Source: Suipraeoptans sp.
Lineage (GTDB): Bacteria; Bacillota; Clostridia; Lachnospirales; Lachnospiraceae
DNA length: 12,066 bases
Assembly (NCBI GenBank): GCA_047973235.1
Contig: JBKEBP010000032.1
Coordinates: 1 to 12,066, forward strand
Direction: 5' to 3'
Each line of letters starts with the position of its first letter. The stretch's first letter is position 1. The notes under the pieces were generated by a model, which worked only from the letters and a program-made list of their open reading frames with translations, was not told the origin of the DNA and searched no databases. Position numbers and translations under genes: made by a program. Shown here piece after piece: positions 1-12,066 of the stretch.

Positions 1-105
1 ATATCCGAAAGAGTATTTATCTGTGAGTGTGGTAATATAATGGATAGAGATATAAATGCTGCAATAAATATAAGAGAAGAAGGTAAAAGATTAGTAAGTG
101 CGTAA
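1..105 (+). CDS. tnpB: 3' end of an IS200/IS605-family TnpB (OrfB) transposase-associated RNA-guided nuclease; the gene continues upstream of the window. Frame 1 reads ...ISERVFICECGNIMDRDINAAINIREEGKRLVSA*
   Basis: C-terminal CxxC zinc-finger half (CECG) followed by the RuvC-III-like motif DRDINAAINI, which is characteristic of TnpB C-termini. Stop TAA at 103-105. AT-rich like the right half of the window. Confidence 0.78.
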   Translation: MSERVFICECGNIMDRDINAAINIREEGKRLVSA

Positions 106-235
106 CTGCACAAAATAATAAAGGAACCGCAGGGCATGCGGGGATAGCTTGTTAACACTTATCCCACTAGGGATATAACACAAGAAGCTCCCACTTCATA
201 AAGCATTGGCTTTAAGTGGTGAGAGTATGTCACAA
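20..235 (+). ncRNA. Putative TnpB omega-RNA (reRNA) scaffold overlapping the tnpB 3' end and the right end. The guide segment would lie at about 220-240.
   Basis: Established TnpB biology places the omega-RNA over the last ~100-150 nt of tnpB plus the RE. Consecutive hairpins at 127-141, 141-165 and 191-219 are consistent with a structured scaffold. Boundaries are approximate and not verified. Confidence 0.3.
152..179 (+). promoter_or_regulatory. Candidate sigma-70-type promoter inside the IS right end that could drive the downstream operon (-35 TTAACA 152-157, 16-nt spacer, -10 TATAAC 174-179)
   Basis: Hexamer matches 5/6 and 5/6 with a 16-nt spacer. It is the only reasonable promoter-like match between the tnpB stop and the first operon gene. 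Confidence 0.25.
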
Positions 236-261
236 TGCAGACAGGATGGATTGAATTAACT

Positions 262-2799
262 ATGCAAATATTTAAATGCAAAATGTGTGGTGATGATCTG
301 AATGTGATAGAGGATCAAAACTGCGGTACCTGCGAGTCATGTGGCTCGACCATGACACTACCGTCGAGTGCCGACGAACGAAAAACCAATCTTTTTAACC
401 GTGCCAATCACTATCGTCGATTGGGCGATTTCGATAAGGCACTGACTGCATACGAAAATATTCTTGCTGACGATTTCGCTGAGGCTGAGGCGCATTGGGG
501 AGTGGTTTTGTGCCGATTCGGCATTGAGTATGTCGAAGATTTGACAAGTGGCGAGCGCATACCTACAGTCAACCGTATGCAGCTAACCTCTGTGCTCAGT
601 GATTCTGATTATCTCGCCACCCTAGAGCATGCACCGGACAACTACACTAGGGAGCTATATGAAAAAGAAGGCTCTGCTATTGCCAACATCCAAAAGGGCA
701 TTTTGGCTGTGTCTCAAGGTGAAGACCCATATGATATTTTTATTTGCTATAAGGAATCTTCCGACAGTGGTACGCGTACCAAAGACAGCGTGCGGGCTCA
801 GGAAATATATCACGCGCTAACCAATGCCGGATATCGCGTGTTTTTTTCACGCATTTCTCTTGAAGATAAGGTCGGACGGGAGTATGAGCCTTACATATTT
901 GCTGCTCTTAGTTCAGCCAAGGTCATGCTTGTTGTCGGTACTCAGGCAGCACATTTTAATGCCGCCTGGGTAAAAAACGAATGGAGTCGTTATCTAGCAC
1001 TTATGAAAAACGACCACAGCCGATTGCTCATTCCCTGCTATCAGGACATGGATGTCTATGATATCTCAGAGGAGCTTTCGATGCTACAGGCACAGGACAT
1101 GGGCAAGCTGGGATTTATTCAGGATTTGCTGCATGGCATTGAGAAAGTACTTAAGAGTGGAACTTCGGAGCCACCAGTCGAAGCCGCTGCATCTGTAATC
1201 GCGGCAGTGCCGGGAGTTGAATCTCTCTGCGAACGAGGTCTGTTATTCTTAGAAGAGGGGGATTTTGAGCAAGCGGATTGGTATTTTGAAAGGGCACTGG
1301 ATATTGAGCCTAGACATGCACCGGCTTATGTTGGCAAGCTCTGTGCAGAGCTTAAGGTTAAAAAAGAACAGGACCTACCCGTTGCAGCTGCAGTTTCACA
1401 TTCAATTGAAAATAGCTCAAATTACAACAGGGCACTTCGTTTTGCCGACGAAGATCTGCGTTCGCGATTAGAGGACTATGCAAAAGAGTCGGCACTGCTT
1501 AAAGATTACAATGCAGCACTTGCTCTGTTTGAGGATAGAAAATACGACGAGGCATTTTTGACTTTTCAATCTCTTGGAAATTATAAGGATAGTGAGGAGC
1601 GAGTTGCAGTTTTTACAGATGCTGTTGAAACGAGGAAGGCGGATACCTATCAATGTGCAGAGGATTTACTTGCTGATGGCAGCTACATTGGTGCCGCAAT
1701 AAAGTTTTCATCTCTAGGAAAATATCGTGACGCGTCTGCTAGGGCAGACAAGTTTGTAAAGCAGTGGAGGCTGGACTTGGCTGAAACGGTCGCTGCCGAT
1801 GGCGATCATACAGTTATGTTGAGGTCAGATGGCACAGTCATTGCTATTGGCGAAAATAAAGACGGCCAATGTAATACAAGTGACTGGTCGGATATTGTGG
1901 GGATTGCAGCGGGGTATCGCCACACTGTGGGTCTAAAAAATGATGGAACAGTGGTGGCTGTTGGTCAAGATGCTTTTGACACCTGCAATGTTACAGGCTG
2001 GACGGATATTGTGGCAGTTTCTGCAGGAAAGAATCATACAGTGGGATTAAAAGCTGACGGAACAGTGATAGCTGTTGGCAATAATGATTCTGACCGGTGT
2101 AATGTGGATGACTGGTCAGATATTGTGGCAGTTTCTGCAGGATCGCATCATACAGTGGGTCTAAAAGCTGACGGAACAGTGGTAGCAGTTGGCACTGGTG
2201 GAAACAGTCAGTGTGAGGTAACCGACTGGATGAGTATTGTGGCAGTTTCTGCAGGAGAGGGTCATACAGTGGGATTAAAAGCTGATGGAACAGCGGTAGC
2301 AGTTGGCAAAAATATCTTTGATCAGTGTGAGGTGACCAACTGGACGGATATTGTGGCGATTTCTGCAGGATCCAAACCGTCAATTGGCTTAAAATCAGAT
2401 GGTACGGTTGTTGCTGCCGGCGGGGTTGCTTGGGACCAGAGTGATGTGGATGCCTGGACGGGTATTGCAGCAATTTCAGCAGGAACACATCATGCAGTGG
2501 GATTAAGAGCCGATGGAACAGCGGTAGCAGTTGGCAAAAATATCTTTGAACAGTGCGAGGTGACTGACTGGACGGGTATTATGGTATACAATAAAAAAAA
2601 TATAAATATAGCAAAACTAGTGGCTGCAGAAGCCGTGAAAAAGACAGGGCTAAACGCTGCAGAGACAGTAAAAAATAAAGAATTAGAGACCACAAAGTCC
2701 GCAAAAAAATGGAAAGACGCCGGCCTGTGCCGCCACTGCGGCGGGAGAATAGGCGGACTGTTGATTAAAAAATGCAAGGCATGCGGCGAGACGCAGTAA
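262..2799 (+). CDS. Multidomain TIR-domain protein. Layout: N-terminal zinc ribbon (CKMCG...CGTCESCG), helical linker, TIR domain (about nt 733-1150, DIFICYKESSDSG...WVKNEW), TPR-like helical repeats (about 1220-1790), seven-blade RCC1-like beta-propeller (1798-2580), Lys-rich linker, C-terminal zinc ribbon (CRHCGG...CKACG). Predicted NAD+-consuming immune-type effector fused to repeat sensor domains.
   Basis: Long ORF in the track (235-2799). I place the start at ATG 262 (MQIFKCKMCGDD), just before the zinc ribbon; 235 is possible but lies inside the IS-end hairpin region. The TIR hallmark motifs include a Glu (codon 979-981, in KNEW) at the position of the catalytic glutamate. Seven ~38-aa repeats of the form xHTVGLKADGTVVAVGxNxxxQCxVxDWxDIVAVSAG are RCC1-like blades. 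Coding sequence is GC-rich. Confidence 0.9.
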   Translation: MQIFKCKMCGDDLNVIEDQNCGTCESCGSTMTLPSSADERKTNLFNRANHYRRLGDFDKALTAYENILADDFAEAEAHWGVVLCRFGIEYVEDLTSGERIPTVNRMQLTSVLSDSDYLATLEHAPDNYTRELYEKEGSAIANIQKGILAVSQGEDPYDIFICYKESSDSGTRTKDSVRAQEIYHALTNAGYRVFFSRISLEDKVGREYEPYIFAALSSAKVMLVVGTQAAHFNAAWVKNEWSRYLALMKNDHSRLLIPCYQDMDVYDISEELSMLQAQDMGKLGFIQDLLHGIEKVLKSGTSEPPVEAAASVIAAVPGVESLCERGLLFLEEGDFEQADWYFERALDIEPRHAPAYVGKLCAELKVKKEQDLPVAAAVSHSIENSSNYNRALRFADEDLRSRLEDYAKESALLKDYNAALALFEDRKYDEAFLTFQSLGNYKDSEERVAVFTDAVETRKADTYQCAEDLLADGSYIGAAIKFSSLGKYRDASARADKFVKQWRLDLAETVAADGDHTVMLRSDGTVIAIGENKDGQCNTSDWSDIVGIAAGYRHTVGLKNDGTVVAVGQDAFDTCNVTGWTDIVAVSAGKNHTVGLKADGTVIAVGNNDSDRCNVDDWSDIVAVSAGSHHTVGLKADGTVVAVGTGGNSQCEVTDWMSIVAVSAGEGHTVGLKADGTAVAVGKNIFDQCEVTNWTDIVAISAGSKPSIGLKSDGTVVAAGGVAWDQSDVDAWTGIAAISAGTHHAVGLRADGTAVAVGKNIFEQCEVTDWTGIMVYNKKNINIAKLVAAEAVKKTGLNAAETVKNKELETTKSAKKWKDAGLCRHCGGRIGGLLIKKCKACGETQ
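1798..2580 (+). repeat. Seven tandem 114-bp (38-codon) coding repeats encoding the RCC1-like propeller blades. Long identical DNA stretches recur between units (e.g. attgtggcagtttctgcagga three times; ggaacagcggtagcagttggcaaaaatatctttga in units 5 and 7).
   Basis: Direct reading of the nucleotide and protein periodicity. The spurious antisense ORFs 1991-2488 and 2490-2804 are by-products of this repeat. Confidence 0.85.
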
Positions 2800-2835
2800 T
2801 TCATCTAGTTATAAAACACAAAGGAGGGGATAAAT

Positions 2836-4290
2836 ATGTCAAAAATCGTAATCAAATGCCCACAATGCAATGTAGAGGTTAATACAGATGTAAGTGCCAG
2901 TGCATACGAATGCCCAATCTGCAATCAGAATATTGATGTTCAGGCACAGATTGCCAAAATGCGCATCTCTAAAGAAGGGCTTGTCTCTATAGTTAAATAC
3001 GAGGGTGGAAATAACACCTTTGTCTGGAAACACCCTATTGAGGACTTCAATCTGGGCAGCCAGCTTATCGTCCACGAGTCGCAGGAGGCCCTGTTCTTCC
3101 GCGACGGCCAGGCCCTAGATCTCTTTGGTGCGGGACGATACACATTAGAGACACAGAATCTACCGCTGTTGGAAAAAATCTATCGGCTCCCCACAGGAGG
3201 GGAGACTCCGTTCCACGCGGAAGTATATTTCATAAATAAAACAGTCCAAATGGGCATTAAATGGGGCACAGATAGCAAGGAGCGTATGTTTGACCCCATC
3301 TCCGGTTTGCATATCGATATCGGTGCGTCGGGCGAGTTTAACCTGCGAGTGGCTGATTCTCGCAAGCTAGTATTGAAGCTTGTGGGTACCGCCGGTGGGT
3401 TAGAGCGTGGCGAGTTGTTGTCTATGGGCAAAAGCGACGGAAATTCAAATGGTATGCAGGGATATTTCCGGGCACTCATCATGACGCAGGTGAAAACCCA
3501 TCTCGCGCAAAGCATCAAGGCACAGAGTATCAACATTCTGGAGATAGATGCTAAGCTTACAGAGCTTTCACAAGCGCTTAAGGATCAGGTTAACGCAGGT
3601 CTTGAGGAATATGGACTGACTATGCCTGAGTTTTTTGTGGTACGTGTTGTTACGCCTGATGACGATTCAAACTTCAAGCGTATGAAGCAGCAATACGCTG
3701 ATCAGTATTTGAAAATCCGTGAAGAGCAAATAAGAAAAACCGAAGCTGAGGCTGCTGCAGAGCGCAAACTGGTAGAAGCCGAAACTGAGGCGCGCATGAA
3801 AATTGTGGGTGCTAAGGGCGAGGCCGAGACCTACCGCCTGCAAGCTGAGGTAGAAGCTAAAGAAATGCAGATGAAGGGATACACCTATCAGCAGGAGACA
3901 TCCCGTCAAGTGGGCATGGAAGCCATGAAGAACGGTATCGCAGGCGAAGGCGGCGGTGGATCGGGTGGTGTACTGGGCGATGTTGCAGGTCTGGGTATTG
4001 CGCTAGGTGCTATGGGCGGCGTGGTAGGCATGACTAAGGACGCGCTTAATCCCATGATAGATGGTAGTCTGCAAAACACTATGGGTGGTGTGGTTACCAA
4101 TAACGCCTCAGAGGGGACGGCTAGAGGCTGGTCCTGCCCAGCATGTGGTAAAACTGAAAACATTTCAAATTTCTGTGGTGAGTGTGGTGCAAAGCGTCCG
4201 GAAACATCATCCGGTTGGGCGTGTAACTGTGGTCAAAATGGTATTACCAGCAAGTTCTGCCCCGAATGTGGAACGAAGCGACCGGAATAG
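2836..4290 (+). CDS. SPFH/Band-7 family protein of the COG4260 type (YdjI-like, 'putative virion core protein' family). Carries an N-terminal zinc ribbon (CPQC...CPIC), central SPFH domain, Ala/Glu-rich coiled coil, Gly-rich hydrophobic segment and two duplicated C-terminal zinc ribbons (CPACG..FCGECGAKRPE and CNCG..FCPECGTKRPE).
   Basis: Strong RBS AGGAGGGG 6 nt upstream of ATG 2836, 36 nt after the gene-1 stop. The N-terminal region (VKYEGGNNTFVWKHPIEDFNLGSQLIVHESQEALFFRDGQALD...) and the coiled-coil/zinc-ribbon layout match PF13421/COG4260 proteins as I remember them. Confidence 0.88.
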   Translation: MSKIVIKCPQCNVEVNTDVSASAYECPICNQNIDVQAQIAKMRISKEGLVSIVKYEGGNNTFVWKHPIEDFNLGSQLIVHESQEALFFRDGQALDLFGAGRYTLETQNLPLLEKIYRLPTGGETPFHAEVYFINKTVQMGIKWGTDSKERMFDPISGLHIDIGASGEFNLRVADSRKLVLKLVGTAGGLERGELLSMGKSDGNSNGMQGYFRALIMTQVKTHLAQSIKAQSINILEIDAKLTELSQALKDQVNAGLEEYGLTMPEFFVVRVVTPDDDSNFKRMKQQYADQYLKIREEQIRKTEAEAAAERKLVEAETEARMKIVGAKGEAETYRLQAEVEAKEMQMKGYTYQQETSRQVGMEAMKNGIAGEGGGGSGGVLGDVAGLGIALGAMGGVVGMTKDALNPMIDGSLQNTMGGVVTNNASEGTARGWSCPACGKTENISNFCGECGAKRPETSSGWACNCGQNGITSKFCPECGTKRPE

Positions 4291-4301
4291 AGGAGGATAA
4301 G

Positions 4302-4973
4302 ATGAAGTTGAATATAAAAAAGTCATTTTGGTATGTGCTTGGTCTCGTGACTGTCATATATTTGGTGATAAGCCTTGCAATACCATTCAATAAAACAGCG
4401 ACCTACTGGCTTGCATTTGCCTTTGGGCTTATCGCGCTTGCGGCACAGATTATCTTTTTTAGGAATGCCTTTGATGGAGCGGAGAAGGTCATTAGCAAGC
4501 TATATGGCTTTCCGATTGCTCGTGTTGGTCTGATTTATCTTGTGGTGCAGGTTGCTATCAGCTTTATAATTATGACCTTTGCCGCGAGTTGTCCATTGTG
4601 GGTGTCAGTGTTACTTGGCATTGTGTTGGCCGCCTTGGCGGGCATTGGACTTACCGGCACTGTGGTTAGTCGTAAGGCGGTAGAAAAGCGTGAAGCACAG
4701 ATTGTCTCCGATAAAACGGACATCATGAAGCAGCTTCGAGCTGAAGCTGAGTCATTTGCCAAATTTGCACCAGAGGAGCTGCGCGTTGAAGCGGGAAAGC
4801 TTGCTGAAGCCATTCGTTACAGTGATCCCGTGACGACTGATGCGTTACAAGAAACAGATACTGCCCTTCTCGTGGTAATGCGCGAGCTGCAGGTGAATAG
4901 TAATGCAGATTCAGTGTTGGCATTTTCAAAAAAATTAGAGGAACGAAATATACGCTGTAAAGCGCTGAAATGA
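4302..4973 (+). CDS. Small integral membrane protein with four predicted TM helices and an ~90-aa cytoplasmic helical C-terminal domain; third gene of the operon
   Basis: RBS AGGAGG 5 nt upstream of ATG 4302, 12 nt after the SPFH stop. The ORF track starts earlier at 4266 in the same frame, but the RBS supports 4302. Hydrophobic segments are FWYVLGLVTVIYLVISLAI, YWLAFAFGLIALAAQIIFF, IARVGLIYLVVQVAISFIIMTF and LWVSVLLGIVLAALAGIGL. Confidence 0.8.
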   Translation: MKLNIKKSFWYVLGLVTVIYLVISLAIPFNKTATYWLAFAFGLIALAAQIIFFRNAFDGAEKVISKLYGFPIARVGLIYLVVQVAISFIIMTFAASCPLWVSVLLGIVLAALAGIGLTGTVVSRKAVEKREAQIVSDKTDIMKQLRAEAESFAKFAPEELRVEAGKLAEAIRYSDPVTTDALQETDTALLVVMRELQVNSNADSVLAFSKKLEERNIRCKALK

Positions 4974-5002
4974 AGGCGAAGCATGAGATAATATGTTTCT
5001 AA

Positions 5003-5048
5003 AAAGCCGATTGATTTTCGATATTGAAAATCAGTCGGCTTTTCTCTC
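5003..5048 (+). terminator. Rho-independent terminator closing the three-gene operon
   Basis: 16-bp stem AAGCCGATTGATTTTC / GAAAATCAGTCGGCTT with one G-U pair and loop GATATT, followed by TTTTCTCTC. Confidence 0.7.
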
Positions 5049-5069
5049 ATAGTCACAAGTGAAATTTCA

Positions 5070-5099
5070 TTTACATATATAACAAGTGTATTGTACAAT
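5070..5099 (+). promoter_or_regulatory. Possible promoter of the glycyl-radical-enzyme operon (-35 TTTACA 5070-5075, 18-nt spacer, -10 TACAAT 5094-5099)
   Basis: Hexamer matches only. AT-rich background makes this weak. Confidence 0.2.
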
Positions 5100-5145
5100 A
5101 ATTGAAAAGAAAACTGATTATCGTGAAATGATAGGAGGATTTGTT

Positions 5146-7518
5146 ATGAGCAGTACGAAAAGAATAGAGCGCTTGAGGCAAGAATATATTAATTCTAAGC
5201 CAGCTATTTGTTATGAGAGAGCACGTATATATACAGAGTCACATAAAAGAACAGAGGGAAAGCCGATAGCAATCAGAAGAGCACAAGCATTTTATGATTT
5301 TTGCAATGAGTTTAAATGCAAGATTTTCGACGATGAATTGATAGTCGGGACAGCCGGGAAATTTAGAAGGTCCGGGATATTAACACCTGAGTACTCTTGG
5401 ATGTGGGTGGACAGAGAGATGGATGATTTTGATAAACGTCCACAAGATCCATATATGATGACAAAGGACCAAATACGATACGTTAGAGAAGAAATCTTTC
5501 CTTATTGGGAGGGGAAGTCGTTAGAAGAACACTTTCTGGCACGACTGCCTAAGAGCACTGCAAAACTCGCGATAGATACTGGAATTATAGATAATGATTC
5601 GAAATGGCGTCAGGCAGTTGGTGAGATAACGCCTGATTATCAGGATATACTGTTTGTTAAAGGATTTGCAGGAATAAAAGATGAAGCTAAGGCTAAGCTA
5701 AAACAACTCGATTATTCTGACAGTGATGATTATGACAGAGCGATTTTTTACAAGTCTGTTATCTTAGTTAGTGAAGGCATTATAACATTTGCTAAGAAAT
5801 ATTCTGAGGAAGCAGCAAAACTTGCAGAAAAAGAAAATGATATAAAAAGAAAAGAAGAGCTAATAAGAATAAGTGAAGTGTGTAGTAAAGTTCCAGCAAA
5901 TCCTCCCCAAAGTTTTCATGAAGCAATTCAATTTGTATGGTTCACACAGTTAGGAGGAATTATTTCAGAGAATCCTCTGGCGCTAAATCCGGGACGATTT
6001 GATCAGTATATGTATCCATACTATAAAACGGATATAGAGTCGAATAAATTAAACGAAACTGATGCAATGGAGTATATAGAGGCTTTATGGCTCAAGTTTT
6101 CAGAGTGGGTATGGACGATATCATCGAATACTGCCGGTTTTTTTGCAGGATATAACCAATTTCAGAATTTAACCATAGGAGGAAGAACCAGAGAAGGCTT
6201 TGATGCAACTAATGAATTATCATATATGTGCCTTGATGCTACAGACAGTGTAAGAACTCACCAACCGGGATTGAGCGTTAGAATTCACAGTGATTGTCCA
6301 AGTGAGTTTCTAGATGCAGTTTGTAAACTGGTTAGTAAAGGGACAGGGTTTCCTGCGATACATAACGACCAAGCGGGTACCCAGATGCTCCTACAGGCAG
6401 GGTACGAGCCGGAAGATGCAAGGGATTGGAATAATTGCGGATGTGTAGTACCACATTTTAGAAAAACAGGTGAATGGACATCGGCTGTTAATGTGAATTT
6501 TGGTGCAGCGCTTGAGTATTCGCTAAACAGCGGCAGAAGTAGAATTACCAATGAAGTGATGGGAATAACAACAAATGAAATAGATGAGTATGAAGATTTT
6601 GATGAGGTGAAAAATGCATTTTTACTTGAACTTGATAATTTGATACATCATTCTGTAGTCGCAAGCATTGCCGCACAGAAATTACACCAAGAGATGGTTC
6701 CACGACCGTTTTTATCATCTTGTGTTGATGATTGTTTGCAAACGGGAGTTGATTTGAGTAATGGAGGAGCACACTATAATGTAGGTCCTGTTCTTACCGG
6801 TATAGGATTAGCAATAACTGCAAATTCTCTTGCTGTTATTAAAAAACTTGTATTTGAAGAGAAGAAAACCACACTTAGTGAATTAAATGATGCAATGAAT
6901 AAAAACTGGGAAGGCTATGAAGAACTAAGACGCCTAGTACTCAAAGTTCCTAAGTATGGAAATGACAATGATTATGTCGATAGTATTGCAGTTGAAATCT
7001 CAAACTATTATTATAGAAATATTAGAAAACATAAAGATATATTCGGATCTAATTTTAATAGTGCTTTCATGGGAATATCCAATTATATACCAACTGGCAG
7101 AGTAATCGGAGCTACGCCTGATGGACGAAGAGCGGGTGAACCATTGACGGAAGGTGTTTCACCATATGCCGGAAGTGATGTAGAAACGCCTTTAGCGGCA
7201 ATGCGCTCAAGTGCAAAGGTAAATCATGATGTACACACGGGAGGCACACTTCTTAACTTAAGATTAGGTGAAGATATGGTATCTACAAACCGTGGAAGAA
7301 GAAACTTAGGTGCGATGATTCAAGCATATTTTTCACTTGGAGCATTTCATGTGCAATTTAATACAGTATCTACAGATACACTTTTAAAAGCGCAAAAAAA
7401 TCCTGAAGATTATAAAGCTCTTTTAGTTAGGGTTGCAGGATATAGCACTCAGTTTGTCAACCTGTCTAAAGAAATGCAGGATGGCATCATAGTAAGAACA
7501 GCACATGAAAAGTTCTAA
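5146..7518 (+). CDS. Glycyl radical enzyme of the PFL2/glycerol-dehydratase/CutC/HypD fold with unassigned substrate. Glycyl-radical motif RVAGYS (Gly codon 7438-7440). Cys loop WNNCGCVVP (Cys codons 6436-6438 and 6442-6444) lacks the Glu at Cys+2 typical of dehydratase/lyase members.
   Basis: N-terminal ERLRQEYINSKPAICYERARIYTESHKRTEGKPIAIRRAQA, internal GATPDGRRAGEP, and C-terminal LLVRVAGYSTQFVNLSKEMQDGIIVRTAHEKF are family hallmarks. Start chosen at ATG 5146 (RBS AGGAGG 5134-5139) rather than the track's 5086. Confidence 0.9.
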   Translation: MSSTKRIERLRQEYINSKPAICYERARIYTESHKRTEGKPIAIRRAQAFYDFCNEFKCKIFDDELIVGTAGKFRRSGILTPEYSWMWVDREMDDFDKRPQDPYMMTKDQIRYVREEIFPYWEGKSLEEHFLARLPKSTAKLAIDTGIIDNDSKWRQAVGEITPDYQDILFVKGFAGIKDEAKAKLKQLDYSDSDDYDRAIFYKSVILVSEGIITFAKKYSEEAAKLAEKENDIKRKEELIRISEVCSKVPANPPQSFHEAIQFVWFTQLGGIISENPLALNPGRFDQYMYPYYKTDIESNKLNETDAMEYIEALWLKFSEWVWTISSNTAGFFAGYNQFQNLTIGGRTREGFDATNELSYMCLDATDSVRTHQPGLSVRIHSDCPSEFLDAVCKLVSKGTGFPAIHNDQAGTQMLLQAGYEPEDARDWNNCGCVVPHFRKTGEWTSAVNVNFGAALEYSLNSGRSRITNEVMGITTNEIDEYEDFDEVKNAFLLELDNLIHHSVVASIAAQKLHQEMVPRPFLSSCVDDCLQTGVDLSNGGAHYNVGPVLTGIGLAITANSLAVIKKLVFEEKKTTLSELNDAMNKNWEGYEELRRLVLKVPKYGNDNDYVDSIAVEISNYYYRNIRKHKDIFGSNFNSAFMGISNYIPTGRVIGATPDGRRAGEPLTEGVSPYAGSDVETPLAAMRSSAKVNHDVHTGGTLLNLRLGEDMVSTNRGRRNLGAMIQAYFSLGAFHVQFNTVSTDTLLKAQKNPEDYKALLVRVAGYSTQFVNLSKEMQDGIIVRTAHEKF

Positions 7519-7557
7519 CATAGAAGAGTTTTTATAGAGAAGAGTTTGAGGTAAAAA

Positions 7558-8466
7558 ATGAAAACAGTGCAAGACAAAGGCATGATACTTCAGATGCAGA
7601 ACCTTTCAGTTAATGATGGAGAGGGTATACGAACAACTATTTTTATGGCAGGTTGTCCTCTTAGATGCAAATGGTGTTCCAACCCTGAAAGCTTTACGAT
7701 AAAAAGAAAAGTGGCTGTATATCAATCAGAATGTATTAAATGTGAAAGGTGTAAAGATATATGTCCTTCTAATTTGTACATAAGTGAAAACAGAGCAGAT
7801 GAGAAACAGTGTATGCTCTGTGGAGCATGCGTAGAGAGTTGTCCGACACATGCTATCGAAATTATGAATGAGCAAATTTCTATAGATGACATAGTTAAAA
7901 GAATTGAAAGAGAAGAGCTTTTCTTTAGATATTCAAATGGTGGTGTGACATTTTCCGGTGGTGAAGCTACATTTCAGGAAGGATTTCTTAGAAGTATCGT
8001 TGACAGATTATATGAAAGAAATACTTCAATGTGGCTTGAAACTTGTGGGTATTTTGATTTTAATAGTTGCCGAGATATACTAGAGAAGCTCGACCATGTA
8101 TTTTTTGATATAAAGACTATGGATAGTACAAAGCACAAAGAGTATACCGGTGTTGATAACAAGTCAATTCTTGAAAATGCTAAGCATATATATGAGTTAA
8201 ATATTCCGATGACTATACGAGTCCCGTTAGTAAAACATATAAATGATAATGATGAAAACATTTATATGCTGTCATCATTTATTAGAGAGAATATTCCAAA
8301 TGCTGATATTGAAATATTACCGTATCATAATCTTGGTCTTATGAAATATAAGGCATTGGGGTATGAAGAACTTATAAATGAATACGAAACACCGGATGCC
8401 AAAAGAATTAGTGAAATATATAAAATATTCAGTACACACGATGTGAAAAGTGTTGAATACCGCTAA
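7558..8466 (+). CDS. Glycyl-radical-enzyme activating enzyme (radical SAM) with two additional ferredoxin-like 4Fe-4S motifs
   Basis: CPLRCKWC radical-SAM CxxxCxxC near the N-terminus, plus CIKCERCKDICP and CMLCGACVESCP. It lies 39 nt downstream of the GRE with RBS GAGGT. The ~300-aa size is typical of GD/CutD-type activases. Confidence 0.9.
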   Translation: MKTVQDKGMILQMQNLSVNDGEGIRTTIFMAGCPLRCKWCSNPESFTIKRKVAVYQSECIKCERCKDICPSNLYISENRADEKQCMLCGACVESCPTHAIEIMNEQISIDDIVKRIEREELFFRYSNGGVTFSGGEATFQEGFLRSIVDRLYERNTSMWLETCGYFDFNSCRDILEKLDHVFFDIKTMDSTKHKEYTGVDNKSILENAKHIYELNIPMTIRVPLVKHINDNDENIYMLSSFIRENIPNADIEILPYHNLGLMKYKALGYEELINEYETPDAKRISEIYKIFSTHDVKSVEYR

Positions 8467-8514
8467 AAATTAGAGAAAATATTATAATAATAACAAAAGG
8501 GATGAGGAAGAACA

Positions 8515-9363
8515 TTAGGTAAGCAGGTGCAAGTGATTTTCAAAGTTAACGCCATCGTTACCGGGAATGTTTTCTTGCGTTGAATCTTCCAATGAATGAT
8601 ATATAAAATCACCTGCAACTCTAATGCATTCGTCTACGGACTTTCCTTTAGCAATACCACCGGCTATGCATGAGGCGAATAAGTCCCCGGTACCGGAATA
8701 GCTTTTGCCTACATATGGAAATGAGAAGAAAGCAAAAGACTCACTAGTAACATGAAGGTTTCCCATATGGGCTATACCGACTTCGTTTTCTATTCGAATA
8801 CCGGTTACAATAACATGCTTATTTGAATTATTACAAAGAGACTTAGCGGTCTCTTTGATTTTATTTATTTTAGCGGAAGAATTTGAAATTTCATTAAGTG
8901 AATCGAAATCAGAACCTGTAAGTAAGCATAATTCCGTTAGATTGGGAGTTATAATTGTTGCCATTTTACATAGCTCGACAAGTTCAATACGAAGTGCGTC
9001 GCTGAACAAGCCATGAGTCACGCCATCATCACCCATAACCGGATCAACCAGAAGGAAGGTATCCTTTTTCATGAAAACTGATAGAAATTTCAAAATCTTA
9101 TCAACTTGTTTTTCACTTGCGAGGAAACCGGTATAAATACCATCAAAGTGAGGATTTAGTTTCTTCCATTCGTCTATGAAAATATCCATTTTATCAGTAT
9201 AGTCATCACAGAAATAGCTGTCATAGCCGGTCTGGGAAGTTAATATCGCAGTAGGCAGAGGATAAGCGCTTGCACCCATAGATGAAATTACTGAAATTGC
9301 AGCTACGAGTGAACAACGACCAAAACCTGATAAATCATTTATTACGGCAATTTTTTTTGTCAT
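8515..9363 (-). CDS. pdxK: Pyridoxal/pyridoxamine kinase family protein (PfkB/ribokinase superfamily, PdxY/PdxK-like)
   Basis: 282 aa. It has the N-terminal IAVINDLSGFGRCSLVAAISVISSMG motif and the GTGD-type anion-hole motif (SYSGTGDLFAS) seen in PdxK/PdxY-like kinases. It is convergent with the activase gene. Confidence 0.65.
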   Translation of the reverse strand: MTKKIAVINDLSGFGRCSLVAAISVISSMGASAYPLPTAILTSQTGYDSYFCDDYTDKMDIFIDEWKKLNPHFDGIYTGFLASEKQVDKILKFLSVFMKKDTFLLVDPVMGDDGVTHGLFSDALRIELVELCKMATIITPNLTELCLLTGSDFDSLNEISNSSAKINKIKETAKSLCNNSNKHVIVTGIRIENEVGIAHMGNLHVTSESFAFFSFPYVGKSYSGTGDLFASCIAGGIAKGKSVDECIRVAGDFIYHSLEDSTQENIPGNDGVNFENHLHLLT

Positions 9364-9435
9364 TTGGCAATCCTTTCGAATATCTTAATTATTCATCAAT
9401 ATTACACCAAATTGTTGGATTTGGAAATATACTGA

Positions 9436-9464
9436 TTGAAAAAAATTAAAAATAAGAATAGAAT
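9436..9464 (+). promoter_or_regulatory. Candidate promoter for the sigma-factor gene (-35 TTGAAA 9436-9441, 17-nt spacer, -10 TAGAAT 9459-9464)
   Basis: 5/6 and 5/6 hexamer matches with optimal spacing. The region is AT-rich, so chance matches are possible. Confidence 0.3.
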
Positions 9465-9499
9465 AGGATGTATAAATACTAATAACAAGGAGAAACACA

Positions 9500-10330
9500 A
9501 TGGAAAGAGAAGAACAAGCTTATTTACGAGAAATAGGTGATATTCCTCTTTTAACGGCAGATGAAGAGGTTGAATTGGCAAAAAGAATAGAGCAGGGTGA
9601 TGAAGCAGCTAAAACAAAACTTGAAGAGTCAAATTTGAAACTTGTTGTTTCAATTGCAAAGAAGTACCGTGGAAGAGGACTATCTTTTATGGATTTAATT
9701 CAAGAAGGTAATCTGGGGCTAATTAGAGCAGCAGAAAAATTTGATTACAAAAAGGGATTTAGATTTTCGACATATGCAAACTGGTGGATAAAACAATCTA
9801 TGACTAGAGCAATATTAGATAAATCAAGGACTATAAGGGTACCGGTTCATATGGCTGAAAATATCAATAGAGTATTAAAAGCTTCTAACGAGTTGACGGT
9901 AAATTTGGGCCGCGAGCCTACGCCGGCTGAAATTTCAATACATATGGGGACTAACACAGAACGAGAAGTATGTGACATGCTGGGATATGCACAAGATCCA
10001 CTATCACTTGAAACACCATATGGTGAAGAGGATGATACTAATTTAGAAAGCTTTATTGAGGACGTTAACAGTAGTAACCCCGAACTGGAAATAATGAAGG
10101 GCGTATTACACTCGGAAATAGAAGAAATTCTTGATACTTTGACAGAACGAGAAAAGAAAGTTATCAAAATGAGGTTTGGACTTAATCAAGAGGAGAAGAT
10201 ATATACTCTTGAGGAGGTTGGAAAGGACATAGGTCTTACTAGAGAACGTATTAGGCAGATAGAAAATAGAGCACTACGACAACTAAGAATTAATTTACAA
10301 AAAAGAGATAGTATGAGTGGGTCTTTATAG
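9500..10330 (+). CDS. Sigma-70 family RNA polymerase sigma factor. Regions 1.2-4 are very similar to primary RpoD/SigA, but region 1.1 and the non-conserved insert are absent (276 aa).
   Basis: [41 protein letters not shown] (region 2), a region 3 segment, and [27 protein letters not shown] (region 4.2 HTH). RBS AAGGAG 7 nt upstream. Confidence 0.9.
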
Positions 10331-10351
10331 GGTTATTATGCCGAAAAGCAG

Positions 10352-10380
10352 TTGACACTAGTGAGAAACTAGGATATAAT
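10352..10380 (+). promoter_or_regulatory. Consensus sigma-70 promoter for tRNA-Arg: -35 TTGACA (10352-10357), 17-nt spacer, -10 TATAAT (10375-10380)
   Basis: Perfect 6/6 matches for both hexamers with a 17-nt spacer, about 28 nt upstream of the tRNA 5' end. The spacer contains the palindrome CTAGTgagaaACTAG. Confidence 0.65.
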
Positions 10381-10408
10381 AACTTTTGCTGTTAATTAAG
10401 ATAGCAAT

Positions 10409-12033
<1,625 letters not shown>

Positions 12034-12066
12034 ATATAGACAGTAGAAGTTAAAACATATATAATA

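Follow-up and report, generated by a model that had tools for sequence, protein, structure and literature searches.

An IS200/IS605-family right end with a covarying omega-RNA scaffold directly upstream of a TIR gene in a Suipraeoptans contig

The first 233 nt of the window (the whole 12,066-nt stretch of DNA analysed here, a complete contig of a Suipraeoptans sp. metagenome-assembled genome, MAG) consist of the 3' end of a tnpB gene and the structured right end (RE) of the IS200/IS605-family element to which it belongs, and the element stops 28 nt before the start codon of a gene for a TIR-domain protein (Table 1). The RE is at the same time the scaffold of an omega-RNA. The preferred reading, to which a probability of about 0.88 was assigned, is an ordinary IS200/IS605 right end in which the adjoining host flank would serve as guide, TnpB would act in homing and the tnpB/omega-RNA transcript would read through into the TIR gene.

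Table 1. Coordinates of features at the left edge of the window and the basis on which each was placed
Feature	Position (nt)	Strand	Basis
tnpB 3' end, last 34 codons and TAA stop (103-105)	1-105	+	Translation, Pfam, tblastn
omega-RNA (reRNA) scaffold, also the IS200/IS605-family right end (RE)	112-233	+	Covariance model R1
Hairpin A, CCGCA-GGGCA-TGCGG, 5 bp, conserved GGRAC-type loop	127-141 (127-131/137-141)	+	Covariation
Stem B (148-151/181-184), around hairpin C	148-184	+	Covariation and fold of the window
Promoter-like motif TTAACA (152-157)-16-TATAAC (174-179), inside the RE	152-179	+	Weak, probably fortuitous
Hairpin C, TATCCC (160-165), loop ACTA, GGGATA (170-175)	160-175	+	Covariation of helix 3
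Terminal hairpin D, GC-U-CCCACU...AAAGC-ATTG-GCTTT...GGUGAG-A-GU	187-226	+	Covariance-model alignment, apical covariation
Helices of hairpin D	basal 187-195/218-226, apical 200-204/209-213	+	Covariance-model alignment
RE terminus ATGTCAC, boundary and predicted right cleavage site after C233	227-233	+	Family alignment
Predicted guide-equivalent host flank, AATGCAGACAGGATGG (16 nt, 234-249), at most 20 nt (to 253; + ATTG)	234-253	+	Boundary at 233 and published rule
TIR-TPR-RCC1 gene, start revised to ATG262 (MQIFKCKMCGDDL...)	262-2799	+	Homologues, Pfam

Translation of positions 1-105 in frame 1 gives ISERVFICECGNIMDRDINAAINIREEGKRLVSA followed by the stop, and the remaining two frames are stop-rich. 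The 34-codon peptide scored 31.9 bits (E 1.5e-7, cut-off 26.3) against Pfam PF07282 (Cas12f1-like_TNB), which represents the zinc-ribbon/RuvC-III region of TnpB, and matched 311 plasmid records by tblastn, the annotated ones being TnpB or transposase; the assignment of these bases in the earlier note to the last codons of a TnpB is therefore borne out. The same note had taken the zinc finger and the RuvC-III motif to be intact, which holds for the latter (DRD..NAA.NI, read as MDRDINAAINI) and for half of the former, as only the second CxxC pair (CECG) lies inside the window. The NCBI label for the 34-aa product is 'MAG: zinc ribbon domain-containing protein [Suipraeoptans sp.]'. Because the window is the whole MAG contig, tnpB is broken at base 1 by the contig end and not by biology. 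A contig break inside an element usually points to a multicopy repeat; here the repeat broke the assembly, which explains the contig end at this place, and the element is presumably complete upstream of it.

Between the tnpB stop codon and the end of the element lie 128 nt (106-233) that carry three hairpins, in keeping with the earlier description of about 125 nt with three hairpins after TnpB, and the covariation seen in relatives agrees with them. Folded as a single sequence, 112-233 reached -35.1 kcal/mol (z = -3.2), a stability equalled by 0 of 200 shuffles, and hairpin D folded as DNA gave z = -3.4. RNAalifold on 13 relatives returned 27 consensus pairs, 18 of them compensatory. A covariance model (R1) was built from these 13 relatives with the window left out, and the search with it, a check proposed in the earlier note, returned one match in the window: it covers the full model, lies at 112-233 (+ strand) and scores 96.1 bits (E 7e-20), the second-best score across the 12 kb being 7 bits. 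Together with a boundary that is shared family-wide (see below), this score upholds the earlier identification of the structured stretch as an IS200/IS605 right end with its omega-RNA.

Pairing was then quantified on 79 distinct family sequences in an alignment that had been fitted to the model: 96.8% of pair cells were paired, compared with 78% in column shuffles and 32-57% in a partner-slide control, and changes on both sides were found in 20 of the 27 pairs. By helix, compensatory changes affected all five pairs of hairpin A (helix 1), two of the four pairs of stem B (helix 2) and all six pairs of hairpin C (helix 3; both-sided changes, 99.7% of cells paired), and the apical stem of hairpin D (helix 5) covaried in four of four pairs. 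Because the search pattern itself dictated the basal stem of hairpin D, the conservation of that stem is circular and uninformative. The window sequence folded alone gives the same B/C structure, and its one departure from R1 in a stem is the mismatched pair C191-A222. Hairpin D is the last stem of the omega-RNA and, by analogy with characterised elements, its single-stranded DNA is likely to be the subterminal palindrome (IP-RE) for TnpA. Hairpin A on the minus strand is followed by TTCCTTTATT and was called terminator-like; it might end antisense transcripts that run into the IS, or the call could be due to chance.

Relatives were collected by scanning one genome per species with a terminal-hairpin pattern, AAGAAGCNCCCACTT..AAGTGGTG, which matched at least 119 loci from taxa that include Lachnospiraceae, Enterococcus, Bacillaceae and Acholeplasmatales. 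With a single exception, the 119 matches listed terminate in G(T)TCAC or in a form that differs by one base (ATCAC, ATTCAC), and immediately beyond this ...TCAC terminus the flanks are unrelated. When window positions 1-233 were compared with the family loci by blastn, the alignments reaching the 3' part all stopped at 233, and an initial alignment to the sequence 3' of tnpB in Ruminococcus albus pRUMAL01 and Finegoldia magna pFMC showed similarity that ended at ...GATGTCAC. Since similarity in the relatives stops after GTCAC, the right end is at 233 and not at about 220. The earlier note had raised the case of other IS copies ending well before position 150, with the hairpins as host sequence; this comparison, run on the family, placed the ends of the copies at the equivalent of 233. 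The closest members among the matches listed come from Blautia, Coprococcus and Mediterraneibacter (about 76% identity over 120-233).

The genetic context of the relatives identifies the element. Annotation gives tnpB for the copies in R. albus (tnpB only) and F. magna, and in Coprococcus comes (locus L069) the same RNA lies directly 3' of a 367-aa TnpB (PF12323, PF01385, PF07282), itself preceded by a Y1 (IS200-like) transposase (PF01797); the C-terminus of this TnpB, LSERVYHCACGNEMDRDRNAAINIREEARRMLTA, resembles the window peptide (22 of 34 residues the same by eye). From these three contexts, window positions 1-233 are an IS200/IS605-family right end. Lachnospiraceae copies (L100, L124, L054, L033, L042) share a conserved left-end block, TTTTAA(C/T) and then a CTCC..GGGAG hairpin, which suggests, from sequence, a T-rich TAM. 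The left arm is absent from the C. comes copy (1-60 of L069), whose left end looks truncated. The resulting Bacillota omega-RNA family is very widespread, with members in at least 119 species-level genomes, and is not represented by any Rfam model.

Some candidates and observations were set apart from the family. P0001, apparently the closest TnpB by protein, has a different RNA in its 3' flank with no R1 match; it was retrieved with a chimeric 51-aa query carrying an F. magna prefix, a heuristic search that returned nine fragments. Five viral-contig TnpB loci from a scan for tnpB codon strings belong to a different omega-RNA subfamily. A 1249-bp Blautia scaffold with Ns (L024) shows the tnpB 3' end and omega-RNA three times (77-196, 434-553 and 1117-1236), probably a scaffolding artefact of the repeat and not a tandem array. 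At L069, a RAGATH-18 RNA (75 bits) lies at 4896-4968, about 3 kb downstream of the IS copy, and is unrelated to it. A literature string search with the conserved RNA motif gave chance matches only.

Exact copies were sought with IS-specific 22-mers in genome and metagenome contig collections (0 matches) and with a junction/empty-site 24-mer in metagenome contigs (0 matches). These searches covered the two contig collections, and their outcome is an absence of data, not counterevidence.

In elements of this type the 3' end of the omega-RNA scaffold is set by the RE, and the guide derives from sequence beyond the transposon (PMC10278001). The ISDra2 RNA takes its last ~16 nt from the flank, and its target is the donor joint, made up of TAM and flank (PMC8612924). 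With the element ending at 233, the guide would be the 16-20 nt given in Table 1. The earlier note had placed it at about 220-240, overlapping the start region of the TIR gene: an overlap with that region exists, and positions 220-233 still belong to the scaffold. The flank 234-253 doubles as the 5' leader of the TIR gene, and both ATG235 and AGGA/GGA Shine-Dalgarno candidates (243-250) lie within it. Because the gene starts at ATG262 (see below), the putative guide covers this leader and the likely Shine-Dalgarno region, not the homology-supported start codon. The guide 16-mer has no second copy within the window.

The preferred reading can be laid out as a sequence of predicted steps. As single-stranded DNA, the hairpin at 187-226 and TCAC at 230-233 would provide the recognition and cleavage signals for TnpA; as RNA, the three covarying hairpins would form the scaffold bound by TnpB. 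The omega-RNA would have to be transcribed past the boundary, across 233, for which reason its guide would be the first 16-20 nt of host DNA. The guide would then have its standard role: after excision, TnpB would cut the restored empty site (TAM and then AATGCAGACAGG...), and the transposon would be copied back as a result. Transcription of the genes for the TIR protein, the SPFH protein and a 235-aa protein from this side would come from read-through of the tnpB/omega-RNA transcript.

The start of the TIR gene was assigned by homology. Its product has Pfam domains TIR_2, TPR and RCC1_2, and the TIR-TPR-RCC1 homologues all begin MAI[LIF]KCKMCGG, which aligns with ATG262 (MQIFKCKMCGDD). Starting at ATG235 would add nine residues absent from every homologue, and the NCBI start, ATG352 (815 aa), removes the conserved N-terminal CxxC..CxxC zinc ribbon. 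By these sequence comparisons the gene starts at ATG262, not at ATG235 or ATG352. ATG235, with GGTGAGAG inside the IS, could still be the start in use, because the Shine-Dalgarno region of ATG262 is poor (AGGA 15 nt and GGA 11 nt upstream). The gene follows the IS end directly, as had been noted earlier, the first ATG of the long ORF being at 235, two bases past 233. Database searches with the protein started at 235 or at 262 returned no record; the SPFH protein was found on one Logan contig, which starts inside the TIR gene and gave no upstream extension.

Other explanations of the first 233 nt were weighed against this reading. The element might be a relic without activity, in which a decayed or truncated tnpB 3' end stands beside a solo RE as a mere scar and no functional TnpB-omega-RNA complex is made. 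That only 34 codons are visible would fit, as would the failure to find the exact IS anywhere else in three collection scans and the presence of degenerate copies in the family (frameshifted tnpB in L031, diverged 5' scaffold in L020, shortened left end in L069). The 34 codons, however, form an open frame that passes the Pfam threshold and retains the catalytic DRD and a CxxC, the scaffold fits the model over its full length with a single mismatched pair, and the contig break inside the element is shared by many relatives: 51 of the 119 listed family matches are cut, by the end of the sequence stored for them, within 185 nt upstream of the terminal hairpin, often with only 2-10 nt left and in several contigs of one MAG. 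Repeats broke these assemblies just as happened in the window. A relic was accordingly judged unlikely. A structured leader directly 5' of a gene, with a fold that beats its shuffles in stability, could in principle also be a host regulatory RNA for the TIR gene (a riboswitch, an attenuator or the terminator of an upstream gene) and not part of a transposon, but the same structure stands 3' of tnpB at more than 100 sites that share neither their genomic context nor their downstream genes. No Rfam family reached its gathering score on the window or on eight relatives, the one signal on the window being a weak match to RF02841 Ref70 (121-225, 19.7 bits, E 0.52, gathering 115); no + strand terminator was predicted; and the TIR homologue loci L131 and L133 have plain spacers of 28-55 nt with no such leader. 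A host RNA was given next to no credence.

A further question is how the TIR gene is transcribed. The 28 nt before ATG262 cannot hold a native promoter, and transcription from this side must therefore pass out of or through the IS. This would suit an outward sigma-70 promoter inside the RE driving the TIR operon, for which the earlier note had proposed the motif at 152-179. The motif does occur, about 55 nt before the end of the IS and directed towards the gene, with 10 of 12 consensus matches and a 16-nt spacer, and such a motif is contained in only about 5% of shuffles of 101-262. Equally good relaxed matches, however, number nine on the + strand of the window (0.75 per kb), close to chance. 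The -10 hexamer ends in C and lacks T(-7), and a consensus promoter scan did not call it; in sigma-70 -10 hexamers A(-11) and T(-7) are near-invariant. Relatives carry TAGATA...CATTGA at the same columns, so the motif is no conserved feature of the family, and its -10 falls partly on the 3' arm of hairpin C, a covarying helix in which pairing constrains the sequence. The motif thus stands and its role as a promoter is improbable. Read-through from tnpB is, we infer, the most plausible source of transcription into the TIR gene from this side, because no intrinsic + strand terminator was predicted between 100 and 600 and the omega-RNA transcript must cross 233.

A family preference for sites just upstream of co-directional genes was considered and dropped. 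In a crude ORF survey of 110 distinct family flanks, the nearest ORF was co-directional in 65 and opposite in 45, which is no convincing bias, and a co-directional ORF started within 60 nt in 27 of the 110, about a quarter. As ORFs this close are common in family flanks, the arrangement in the window is not special. A regulatory extension of read-through, in which TnpB bound to the omega-RNA leader of the TIR mRNA would cover the guide and ribosome-binding region and gate both processing and translation, is a long shot; if true, it would amount to cis-regulatory coupling of an OMEGA element with an immune-like effector and would put the TIR-SPFH module under transposon control.

The genes downstream of the IS form a conserved three-gene module (262-4973) that encodes, besides the TIR-TPR-RCC1 protein, one SPFH/Band_7_1 protein and one of about 230-235 aa. 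Homologous loci were found at L131 (4038-9309) and L133 (2969-8418), with identities of 53% for TIR, 42% for SPFH and 27% for the ~230-aa protein (E 6e-20). Gene order there is SPFH, 230 aa, TIR and in the window TIR, SPFH, 235 aa, a circular permutation. PADLOC gave no match for the three island proteins, and the module may be an undescribed defence-like system. Extra zinc-ribbon segments were seen at both ends of the SPFH protein (2836-4290; weak DZR and Zn_ribbon_6 Pfam matches), and a conserved C-terminal GLCxxCGG...KCxxCG ribbon in the TIR protein and most retrieved homologues. G+C content is 46-50% in 262-5000 and 33-39% in 5000-12066, the latter, housekeeping part holding pyruvate formate-lyase (PFL), its activase, pyridoxal kinase, a sigma factor and glycerol kinase; this step is consistent with horizontal acquisition of the TIR-SPFH cluster. 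The idea in the earlier note that an IS end beside the island hints at how the island moved finds no support: excision of IS200/IS605 elements is precise and confined to the DNA between their own ends (PMC3201880), and neither a second IS copy nor a composite structure is visible in the window. An IS 28 nt before an apparently acquired TIR-SPFH cluster is of mild interest, in that expression of the cluster from this side passes transposon sequence.

The closest mechanistic parallel is the ISDra2 TnpB/reRNA system (PMC8612924, PMC10278001). In both, the scaffold is drawn from the tnpB 3' region and RE and ends at the transposon boundary, the guide is (in the window, would be) the adjoining host flank, and TnpB has C-terminal zinc-ribbon and RuvC-III motifs. 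The window scaffold differs in sequence and hairpin set, its terminus is TCAC, and the TAM, TTGAT in ISDra2, would be T-rich if the TTTTAA(C/T) left-end block of the window's relatives is a guide to it. A literature search for biochemical work on the window's branch of the family found none. IS608 (ISHp608) likewise has a subterminal imperfect palindrome followed by T-C-A-N at the exact end, its right cleavage site being TCAA, 10 nt 3' of the palindrome (PMC3201880); the analogous distance in the window, from the last strong basal pair (C190-G223) to 233, is also 10 nt. Unlike IS608, the window has TCAC in place of TCAA and a longer hairpin (about 40 nt) that is also an RNA stem, and its TnpA site is a prediction.

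Within the family, the Lachnospiraceae copies (C. comes L069, Blautia difficilis L031/L033, Mediterraneibacter L044) share with the window the four helices and the GGAG(C/T)ATGTCAC end; the window copy differs from them in AGAG in place of GGAG at the 3' foot (the one C-A mismatch), in a shorter spacer after the stop codon and in compensatory changes in hairpins A and C. The hairpin order of the window is similar to that of Rfam RF02841, Ref70 (Enterococcus sRNA 70), and the Ref70 model gave 35 bits (E 0.0078, gathering 115) on the omega-RNA of an Enterococcus family member (L032, 3218-3343, - strand); Ref70 may itself be a TnpB omega-RNA, which is a lead and not a statement of membership. The TldR proteins, nuclease-dead TnpB-derived RNA-guided repressors (PMC10705468), resemble the window in having a TnpB-type protein and a guide RNA beside host genes. 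A TldR-like domestication was rejected, since the RuvC-III DRD of the window is intact and its guide corresponds to the insertion flank, preceded by the RE end and not by a TAM; the element in the window is a routine IS605 insertion.
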